DNA of 64,000 nucleotides from an uncultured Desulfatibacillum sp. (lineage in GTDB: Bacteria; Desulfobacterota; Desulfobacteria; Desulfobacterales; SpSt-501). Positions within the stretch are counted from its first letter, which is position 1, and the number at the start of each line of letters is the position of its first letter. This document shows positions 40,956 through 42,134 of this stretch, one piece after another. A program made the position numbers and the translations under genes. The stretch covers positions 8,690 through 72,689 of the forward strand of contig CAYRUF010000004.1 of the NCBI GenBank assembly GCA_964427375.1, given 5' to 3'. The notes beneath the pieces were generated by a model. It made no database searches and was not told the origin of the DNA. It worked only from the letters and a program-made list of their open reading frames with translations.

Positions 40956-42134
40956 TCATCCGGCTCCCAGGGCTTCCGCCCGATCGGTTTTTTCCCAGGG
41001 CAGATCCATGTCGGTGCGGCCGAAATGGCCGTATGCGGCCAAGCGCTGAAAATAGCCTTCGGTGTGTTTGGAGGGAAGGTAGCGCAGCCGAAAGTGCTTC
41101 ATGATTCCCGCCAACCGAAACTCGAAGTTCCGCTCCAGCAGATCCCGAATCTGGTCGTCCGGTATTTTACCGGTTCCGAAGGTCTGAACTTCCAGGCTCA
41201 CCGGCCGCGTGATGCCGATGGAGTAGCTGAGCATCACCTCGCACTCCGCTGCCAAGCCGGACGCCACGATGTTCTTGGCGGCGTAGCGCGCGGCGTAGGC
41301 GCCCACCCGGTCGACGCGCATGGGATCTTTGCCGCTCAGCGCGTCCCCGCTGTGGCGGGCATACTCACCGTAGGTGTCGACCGCGCTCTTGCGGCCGGTC
41401 AGGCCGGAGTGGTGCGTCGGCCCGCCCTGGTAGGGGCCGTCGGGGTTGATCAGAATTCGGGTCTCCTTGTCCGGCTTGATTTTTTCGTTCTTGAATACCG
41501 GCTTGATCACGGTGTCCATGATGGATTCGTTCAATTTTTTCGGATCCACCTGTTTGGGATGCTCGAGGCTCGCCATGATCGTAACGCCGTGGATTCGCAC
41601 CGGCCGGCGGCGGTCGAACGCCACCGCCACCTGGACCTTGCCGTCCGGCAGGAGGTAGGGCAGGGTCTTCTGGTGCCGCACCTCCGCCAACCGGCGTGAC
41701 AGCTGGTTGGCCAGCATGATCGGCAGGGGCATGAGCACCGGGGTCTGGTCGCAGGCAAAGCCGAAGAGGGTGACCTGGTTCTTGGCGGCCACCTGGTCGA
41801 TCTCCTCATCCGAGAGCTTCTCCTCGTCGAAGCGATTCGCCATGTTGAGCGGCAGCTCCTGGGGAGCCGAGAGGATGCTGCAAATCTTGGCGTTGAAATC
41901 CGGCTGGTCGTAGCCGATGCGTTGGATGACCTTGCGCGCCAGATAGGAGAAATCGACTTTGGCGTCGGAGGCATAGCGCACGGCGATGAAGATGATGGCG
42001 CTCGACACCGCACATTCGGCGCGCACCCGGGCATAGGGGTCCTGCTTCAGAAAATGGTCCACGATGCTGTCGCTGATCTGATCGCAGAGCTTGTCCGGAT
42101 GGCCTTCCGTGACGGATTCGGATGTGAAGATCAC
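40956..42134 (-). CDS. metK: S-adenosylmethionine synthetase family protein (divergent MetK paralog)
   Basis: FTSESVTEGHPDKLCDQISD, GLTGRKSAVDTYG, SGKDPMRVDRVGAYAARY. Atypical AAKNQV in place of GAGDQG and GPTHHSG in place of GPMGDCG. The start overlaps the ATPase stop (ATGA). Confidence 0.8.
   Translation of the reverse strand: MIFTSESVTEGHPDKLCDQISDSIVDHFLKQDPYARVRAECAVSSAIIFIAVRYASDAKVDFSYLARKVIQRIGYDQPDFNAKICSILSAPQELPLNMANRFDEEKLSDEEIDQVAAKNQVTLFGFACDQTPVLMPLPIMLANQLSRRLAEVRHQKTLPYLLPDGKVQVAVAFDRRRPVRIHGVTIMASLEHPKQVDPKKLNESIMDTVIKPVFKNEKIKPDKETRILINPDGPYQGGPTHHSGLTGRKSAVDTYGEYARHSGDALSGKDPMRVDRVGAYAARYAAKNIVASGLAAECEVMLSYSIGITRPVSLEVQTFGTGKIPDDQIRDLLERNFEFRLAGIMKHFRLRYLPSKHTEGYFQRLAAYGHFGRTDMDLPWEKTDRAEALGAG

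Follow-up and report, generated by a model that had tools for sequence, protein, structure and literature searches.

The gene considered here is located on the minus strand at positions 40956-42134 of a 64,000-nucleotide stretch of DNA from an uncultured Desulfatibacillum sp. (assembly GCA_964427375.1, contig CAYRUF010000004.1), the whole of which is referred to as the window in the following. Its open reading frame (ORF) is intact, remains open over 392 residues and encodes a protein with the three-domain fold of MetK, the methionine adenosyltransferase (MAT) or S-adenosylmethionine (SAM) synthetase, which is among the most conserved enzymes known. Directly upstream and on the same strand a P-type ATPase is encoded, and it is this pair, the MetK-like protein and the putative pump, that is described below.

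All Pfam MetK domains were matched by the protein, with 110.6 bits for the N-, 121.5 bits for the M- and 182.8 bits for the C-domain. Its motifs comprise GHPDK, GLTGRK, DTYG and SGKDPMRVDR as well as AAKNQVTLFGFA, GGPTHHSGLTGRK and HSGDALSGKD, and as compared to canonical MetK, GAGDQG is changed to AAKNQV, GD to HH and HGGGAFSGKD to HSGDALSGKD, meaning that the MAT signature motifs GAGDQG and GGGAFSGKD are both broken (AAKNQV; SGDALSGKD). A first-pass annotation, made from the letters of the window, had described a divergent MetK paralogue with substitutions in otherwise invariant motifs, and the substitutions it quoted are present, with D118 being replaced by Asn and D238 by His upon alignment to E. 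coli MetK. Among the motifs that it listed as retained, GHPDK, GLTGRK, DTYG and SGKDP..VDR were found in place, but its AAYAARY has to be read as GAYAARY. The protein scores above the cut-off of the NCBI metK equivalog model TIGR01034 (381.6 versus 309.4 bits), hence annotation pipelines call it MetK, and its close relatives are named methionine adenosyltransferase in public records. An AlphaFold2 model, for which an alignment of 41 sequences of the clade introduced below served as input, was confident (predicted local distance difference test 87.9, predicted template modelling score 0.89) with the exception of the interface loop 247-267, and comparison with solved MetK structures by Foldseek yielded template modelling (TM) scores of 0.89-0.92, the sequence identity to solved or canonical MetK being 42-43%. 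The ratio of nonsynonymous to synonymous substitution rates (dN/dS) was determined to be 0.11 as compared to the same-genus orthologue, with a range of 0.085-0.16 over the orthologues. A dN/dS of about 0.1 identifies the paralogue as a working protein under purifying selection and not as a decaying copy.

Within the assembly, a single full MetK match was identified, with one hit each for the C- and M-domains, and no archaeal-type MAT was found in the genome, which rules out such an enzyme as hidden housekeeping MAT. The presence of a second, canonical metK, which the first-pass annotation had proposed to check, was revealed by tblastn with the canonical MetK of the same genus as query. Here, an 18-residue match with 100% identity to the N-terminus of the canonical MetK of the genus was obtained at the very end of contig C25, whose last 54 bases, ATG...MSISIPKEKFFFTSESVT, are the first 18 codons of canonical metK. 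The remainder of the canonical gene is absent from the assembly, the genome nevertheless being rated 100% complete. As contig C25 ends inside metK, the canonical gene is present and was cut by an assembly break, and its first 18 codons rule out that the gene of the window is the sole metK. Both MetK classes are likewise present in nine other genomes of the genus, where the C-domain scores amount to about 230 bits for the canonical and to 181-188 bits for the second class, and a canonical copy also accompanies the second class in eight of eight genomes from other lineages that bear the latter. The gene at 40956-42134 is a paralogue of metK.

The relation between both classes was addressed with a maximum-likelihood tree of 114 sequences, namely 62 pump-linked or low-scoring copies and 52 canonical MetKs from the same lineages. 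All of the 62 copies were placed on one side of a branch with a Shimodaira-Hasegawa-like approximate likelihood ratio test (SH-aLRT) value of 100, and a single origin of this pump-linked MetK-fold clade is well supported. The alignment and phylogeny proposed at first pass thus resolve a separate clade, the canonical copies being unsubstituted in 52 of 52 cases, while 83 alignment columns are conserved to at least 90% in both clades. The locus survey considered the best 80 loci from about 185,000 species genomes, of which 54 form a higher-identity group; one of these is canonical (L083), one is frameshifted (L065) and the remaining 52 are clade members. Among the labels given to the latter in public records are Desulfobacterales, Thermodesulfovibrionales/Nitrospirae, several cyanobacterial orders, Binatia, Geobacteraceae, Desulfomonile, Syntrophobacteraceae, Chromatiaceae, Thiobacillus, Nitrosospira, Mycobacteriaceae and Rhodospirillales. 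At three loci (L074, L076, L080), long ORFs that run in frame with MetK were recognised as open-frame artefacts of ORF calling in GC-rich DNA. In the literature, no description of a MetK paralogue that is linked to a pump or lacks the methionine site was found, and the clade is a widespread and apparently undescribed sister family of MetK.

For the comparison of active sites, residues were numbered according to E. coli MetK (the sequence being 100% identical to PDB 7LL3_A) and the active-site columns were tabulated for the 62 clade members and the 52 canonical copies. H14, D16, K17, D20, E42, Q167, R244, K245, D249, K265, D271 and R272 were found to be invariant in 62/62 clade members, and D163 and D266 are each retained in 61 of the 62; the ligands of the triphosphate, of Mg2+ and of K+ (H14, D16, K17, E42, R244, K245, K265, D271) are all present in the window protein and in the entire clade (62/62). 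The methionine ligands E55, Q98, D238 and K269 correspond to R53, L94, H242 and R273 in the window protein. Over the clade, E55 is replaced by Arg or His, Q98 by Leu, Met, His or Phe, and D238 and K269 by His and Arg, respectively (62/62 each); further replacements concern F262 (Leu in 62/62), G258 (Ser), G117 (Lys or Arg) and, in about half of the members, D118 (Asn). The window protein accordingly carries, in addition to the two changes quoted at first pass, E55R, Q98L, K269R, F262L, G258S and G117K. At all replaced positions the canonical copies are conserved (52/52), and those from the same genus retain D118, D238, E55, Q98 and K269. In the aligned sequences, the methionine ligands are lost and the triphosphate ligands retained across the entire clade; the adenosine-facing residues K165, T227, F230 and D118 differ between subclades, the triphosphate ligands never do. 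As the substitutions have reached fixation or near-fixation among the 62 clade members and dN/dS is low, they are not the result of chance drift.

Judged from the aligned residues, the methionine amino-acid pocket is turned basic (R55, K117, H238, R269). In human MAT2A, residues E70, Q113 and D258, which are equivalent to E55, Q98 and D238, hydrogen-bond the methionine N/O atoms and the ribose O3', and the patient variants D258G and K289N of human MAT1A show lowered SAM synthesis with intact tripolyphosphatase activity (PMC6850014). The suggestion of the first-pass annotation, a paralogue without housekeeping function and with a changed substrate pocket, agrees with this, since a canonical metK exists and the changed residues are those that form these hydrogen bonds in MAT2A. 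As both acidic ligands of the alpha-amino group have become Arg and His, methionine binding in the usual pose should be disfavoured, and as every methionine ligand is replaced, SAM synthesis is unlikely. In place of the gating loop, the clade possesses a longer segment with the conserved acidic pattern FDE..L.D.EID. Two further exchanges, A19C and T43C (C17 and C41 of the window protein), are nearly invariant in the clade and adjoin the Mg ligand D16 and the K ligand E42, respectively; together with H241/H242, of which the latter is the invariant His at position 238, C17 and C41 might constitute a new metal site.

The ATPase encoded upstream has its best PDB matches in human SPCA1 and Listeria LMCA1 (E ~1e-135) and, as revealed by alignment to SPCA1, retains the DKTGT motif and the ion ligands of transmembrane segments (TM) 4 (Glu of PEGL), 5 (N..E) and 6 (N..D). 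A Ca2+- or Mn2+-like substrate is plausible on these grounds; the protein stays below every NCBIfam equivalog cut-off (558.6 versus 798.3 bits), and its N-terminal HMA_2 match scores 22.2 bits, which is under the Pfam cut-off of 30. The paralogue starts with GTG, preceded at a distance of 7 nt by an AGAGG Shine-Dalgarno sequence, and the start codon overlaps the TGA stop codon of the ATPase gene as GTGA at 42134-42131. At first pass, overlap and position had been given correctly, but the start had been taken for ATG and the overlap hence for ATGA. Overlapping stop and start codons indicate translational coupling. An orthologous ATPase (41-63% identity) was found directly upstream of the paralogue on the same strand in 52/52 clade loci and is absent at the remaining 26 of the 80 loci, which are those of canonical MetKs, with the 4-nt RTGA start/stop overlap occurring in 25 of 54 gene pairs and most other gaps measuring at most 80 nt. 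The Crocosphaera copy of locus L083 (49% identity), which has no pump, was rejected as an exception to this rule, as it is canonical and the only MetK of its genome. Among 41 relatives, pump orthologues with at least 63% identity were identified in exactly the 11 genomes that bear the paralogue (11/11), and in two additional cases the pump gene is truncated by the end of a contig, namely on the flank at which the paralogue would be expected. Chlorogloeopsis fritschii PCC 6912 (L039, L124) carries two paralogue copies in addition to a canonical MetK, each of the two being located 3' of a P-type ATPase; the second clade copy, too, follows an ATPase C-terminus. Gene linkage and co-occurrence of paralogue and pump are strict and point to a physical or functional coupling of both proteins. 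That the paralogue is not a housekeeping SAM synthetase and belongs to an undescribed, pump-coupled MAT-fold family, with a rebuilt methionine site and a preserved triphosphate site, is well supported.

The 188-bp gap in front of the pump gene contains three TCTAAC repeats. Searching the window for TCTAAC-N5-TCTAAC with at most two mismatches gave 8 hits versus 0.68 expected, a number reached by none of 100 shuffles, and a search for YCTAAC-N5-YCTAAC over the whole genome (4.63 Mb) gave five hits versus about one expected. All five are located within the window and are oriented with the downstream phoB-like, pstS, pstC and pump genes, the pump site consisting of two overlapping hits. Pump and pst genes hence share a cis-motif, and in at least four further genomes from the genus the triple repeat in front of the pump orthologue is retained, the spacers diverging; similar repeats are found upstream of the cluster in some distant loci. 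The YCTAAC repeat has the appearance of an operator for a PhoB/PnpR-like regulator specific to this island and differs from the E. coli Pho box. As the pump-paralogue pair lies behind a repeat common only to the phoB-like, pstS and pstC promoters, phosphate limitation probably switches the pair on. The phosphate-stress setting assumed by the first-pass annotation is supported in this genome by the motif that pump and pst genes have in common. The genes surrounding the operon are of the phosphonate uptake, carbon-phosphorus lyase, PhoH-type and lipid-remodelling kinds.

Table. Positions of the paralogue, its partner pump, neighbouring genes and repeat motifs in the window (aa, amino acids).
Feature	Position	Strand	Remark
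YCTAAC repeat motif, three repeats	13849..13876	+	122 bp upstream of PhoB-like response regulator gene
PhoB-like response regulator	13998-14690	+	236.8 bits, below PhoB cut-off
PnpS/PhoR-like kinase, 3' of PhoB-like regulator	14666-16474		passes PnpS equivalog
YCTAAC repeat motif	19434..19450	-	81 bp upstream of pstS (18301-19353, -)
YCTAAC repeat motif	22215..22231	-	59 bp upstream of pstC (20768-22156, -), then pstA
Second CoBaHMA P-type ATPase, paralogous to pump	36070..39051	-	40% identical to pump, no MetK partner
Zinc-ribbon protein (InsA/Top1-type ribbons)	39606..40070	+	convergent with paralogue; pairs with 123-aa CoBaHMA gene
Free-standing CoBaHMA (HMA_2) protein, 123 aa	39988..40359	+	HMA_2 35.9 bits
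189-aa protein, N-terminal membrane anchor, basic tail	40356..40925	-	directly downstream of paralogue; 187-aa gene there in L134
MetK-fold paralogue, 392 aa, GTG start	40956..42134	-	methionine ligands swapped, triphosphate/Mg/K ligands retained
P2-type (SPCA/LMCA1-like) P-type ATPase, 1015 aa, N-terminal CoBaHMA (HMA_2)	42131..45178	-	TGA overlaps paralogue GTG
Three tandem TCTAAC repeats, 11-bp spacing	45325..45352	-	147 bp upstream of pump start; candidate site of PhoB-like regulator
CoBaHMA (HMA_2) protein, 184 aa, C-terminal two-helix membrane hairpin	45367..45921	-	HMA_2 43.3 bits
DUF5132-type small membrane protein, 90 aa	45921..46193	-	stop overlaps CoBaHMA gene start (TGATG)
Get3/ArsA-fold ATPase with C-terminal HSP20-like domain	46732..47931	-	head of same-strand gene string; equivalent position in L134

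Several of the neighbouring genes form a module that recurs with the pair. HMA_2 (PF19991) was identified as the CoBaHMA domain (bioRxiv 10.1101/2024.07.07.602159), and a PF19991 match including the His and basic residues that are conserved in strands beta0-beta2, by which this domain is recognised, was found here. An orthologue of the 184-residue CoBaHMA protein is located upstream of the pump in many loci, and the DUF5132 gene is found in the equivalent position in L134-L137, with the homologue of L034 having a Pfam match. The Get3/ArsA-fold ATPase could serve the insertion of the tail- or hairpin-anchored DUF5132 and CoBaHMA proteins; at L136 a CbiA/ParA-like gene takes a similar place. The zinc-ribbon gene overlaps the start of the 123-residue CoBaHMA gene, and this pair recurs convergent to the paralogue in many lineages, which rules out that it is a remnant of IS1. 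The 189-residue protein has no homologue outside the genus in the loci surveyed and no Pfam or NCBIfam match. An all-against-all clustering had returned many seemingly conserved clusters of small ORFs, which were discarded as shadow frames of the pump and MetK genes. The second CoBaHMA ATPase, with an N-terminal HMA_2 (PF19991) match of 31.3 bits, has PAGL instead of PEGL in TM4 and no Cation_ATPase_C match; it may transport another substrate, or possess a degenerate ion site. In Microcystis, DUF5132 and CoBaHMA-hairpin genes neighbour those of calcyanin and of a Ca2+/H+ exchanger in formers of intracellular calcium carbonate (bioRxiv 10.1101/2024.07.07.602159), and Chlorogloeopsis fritschii PCC 6912 is named in the context of ccyA and the Ca exchanger (PMC8890360).

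At greater distance, a block at 25191-33819 comprises two glycosyltransferases, an OlsF-type bifunctional acyltransferase/GNAT and a gene resembling monogalactosyldiacylglycerol synthase, which is consistent with phospholipid replacement under phosphate stress. Divergent from pstC, a protein of 796 residues with a PPDK_N and a phosphoenolpyruvate-utilising mobile domain is encoded (22749-25139, plus strand), and a PPDK_N gene is also present near the cluster in L137. Two small ORFs of 80 and 91 residues between the kinase and pstB (16742-17246, minus strand) might represent a toxin-antitoxin pair, as by eye they have the look of HicA/HicB.

With a little more confidence than doubt, the paralogue is suggested to be a neofunctionalised MAT-fold protein that serves the pump as triphosphate-directed accessory enzyme or subunit and that is induced together with the phosphate-uptake genes. 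It retains the Mg2+/K+-triphosphate half of the MetK active site and would most likely bind, and probably hydrolyse, a triphosphate group, which may be free tripolyphosphate (PPPi), the end of a short polyphosphate (polyP) or the triphosphate of a nucleoside triphosphate (NTP). Thereby it would act as dedicated cytosolic partner of the CoBaHMA-bearing, Ca2+-pump-like P2-type ATPase, and phosphate limitation would induce the pair via the shared direct-repeat site. Both the triphosphate-directed activity and the induction are suggested by sequence features, the former by the retained ligands and the latter by the repeats.

A number of points weigh against this reading. The probable loss of SAM synthesis is derived from the roles that the residues have in other MATs. 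Mutagenesis from the Markham lab reportedly identified H14 to matter more for C5'-O5' cleavage than for the tripolyphosphatase activity, and the invariant H14 would leave room for nucleosidyl transfer to a new nucleophile. About a quarter of the members lack K165, and conservation of the adenine-stacking F230 is loose; there may hence be members that bind no nucleotide and act purely as subunits. The best 150 representatives from a set of 1.84 billion proteins contained no fusion of pump and MetK. As to phosphate, the connection is based on a motif: CTGTCAT-N4-CTGTCAT, the Pho box of the E. coli type, gave two window hits with three mismatches each, which is chance level, and none near the operon. 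At the distant loci, phosphate-related neighbours were found for L135 and L137, and no obvious ones for L133 and L136 (two of five distant loci).

A wider proposal is considered possible but doubtful. Here the paralogue is assumed to be the catalytic accessory of a hitherto unrecognised, phosphate-starvation-induced system that handles calcium together with polyphosphate or triphosphate, made up of DUF5132, the CoBaHMA proteins, the P2-type pump and the MetK paralogue. The latter would cleave PPPi or polyP ends, or make PPPi from NTP, at the pump, Ca2+ release or chelation would thereby be coupled to its transport, and the CoBaHMA/DUF5132 membrane module would be the one reused in cyanobacterial intracellular calcium-carbonate biomineralisation.

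Somewhat less probable, and as such an unlikely alternative, is that the paralogue is a non-catalytic subunit of the pump, i.e., a pseudoenzyme that, as dimeric scaffold or as sensor for the binding of ATP, PPPi or polyP, takes part in the regulation or assembly of the pump. Strict adjacency, stop/start overlap and perfect co-occurrence with the pump would be expected if both were subunits of one complex, subclades differ in K165 and in the adenosine-facing residues, and, speculatively, the acidic FDE..L.D.EID segment in place of the gating loop could dock on the basic face of CoBaHMA. Against this, none of the triphosphate and metal ligands varies among the 62 sequences with their many phylum labels, the general acid H14 and the two Mg-binding Asp residues included, which exceeds the needs of a scaffold, though a sensor would also retain binding residues.

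Improbable is a nucleosidyl transferase, which would cleave the C5'-O5' bond of ATP or another NTP and transfer the nucleosidyl group to an anionic S-, Se- or O-acceptor, or to water, in the basic pocket. Such an activity would fit the retention of H14, D163 and I302, and the conserved cationic replacements (R55, K/R117, H238, R269) are non-random and suggest a defined anionic ligand, while the exchange of T227 for Asp at the position that reads adenine N1 could alter the base preference. It is disfavoured by the fact that neither the adenine-stacking residue nor K165 is conserved across the clade, and no biosynthetic genes that would use the product recur in the neighbourhood of the surveyed loci.

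A genuine stress-specific SAM synthetase isozyme, binding methionine in a different pose and supplying SAM under phosphate stress, is regarded as very improbable. The score above the metK equivalog cut-off, the public naming of close relatives as methionine adenosyltransferase and the radical-SAM gene phnJ and lipid-remodelling genes nearby in the window would speak for it, and the first-pass annotation had considered a supply of SAM to PhnJ or to lipid modification. This idea is not supported, as the methionine ligands are all replaced and the constant partner is the P-type ATPase and not the phn genes. Moreover, the acidic alpha-amino ligands are now Arg and His, the human variants D258G and K289N at the corresponding positions show reduced SAM synthesis (PMC6850014), both MAT signature motifs are broken and a canonical MetK is also present in every genome tested. 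Finally, a decaying, redundant metK duplicate without a function of its own, to which the degeneration of both classical MAT signatures might point, is hardly credible given the intact frame, a dN/dS of about 0.1, the 83 columns conserved in both clades, the clade-specific and fixed nature of the substitutions and a synteny that holds under many phylum labels.

The suggested triphosphate-directed partner of the pump is of interest beyond the window. A large clade that occurs under many phylum labels and possesses a rebuilt pocket corrects a systematic mis-annotation, as the NCBI equivalog model passes the paralogue. At the same time, the clade represents a natural experiment in which the half-reactions of the MAT active site are separated from each other. 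It further points to an accessory function for Ca2+-type P-type ATPases, so far unknown, and the CoBaHMA and DUF5132 families, whose function is unknown and which are of interest for intracellular calcium biomineralisation, gain a concrete set of partners. Cultured carriers exist with Chlorogloeopsis fritschii PCC 6912, Tolypothrix and Nitrosospira sp. Nsp14.

Among known systems, the P2A-type Ca2+/Mn2+ ATPases SPCA1 and LMCA1 are the nearest solved relatives of the pump, with which they share DKTGT, the Glu of PEGL and the Asn/Glu/Asp ligands of TM5 and TM6; the window pump differs from them in its N-terminal CoBaHMA domain and in the obligate MetK-fold neighbour, which is undescribed for these pumps. 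The calcyanin (ccyA) neighbourhood shows the same pairing of DUF5132 and CoBaHMA-hairpin genes beside the gene of a Ca2+ transporter (PMC8890360; bioRxiv 10.1101/2024.07.07.602159), and strain PCC 6912, named in the former of these papers, carries the two MetK paralogue copies; the transporter there is a Ca2+/H+ exchanger, whereas here it is a P-type ATPase, a calcyanin gene was not seen here, although no search aimed at it was made, and a MetK-like gene is not mentioned in either paper. With canonical MAT (E. coli MetK, PDB 1RG9/7LL3; human MAT2A; TIGR01034) the paralogue shares the three-domain fold (TM score 0.89-0.92, 42-43% identity), the triphosphate, Mg and K ligands and a score above the TIGR01034 cut-off, but it differs in E55R, Q98L, D238H and K269R, in the altered signatures and in the longer acidic segment that replaces the gating loop; furthermore, the clade paralogue is never the only MetK of a genome and always follows a P-type ATPase. 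A comparable pattern of loss is shown by MAT variants with lost SAM synthesis and retained tripolyphosphatase activity (human MAT1A D258G and K289N, and gating-loop mutants; PMC6850014), in which the same positions (D258 for D238, K289 for K269) and the gating loop are hit and the PPPi site is intact. These are, however, single loss-of-function mutations, whereas the changes of the clade are fixed, co-adapted and under purifying selection.

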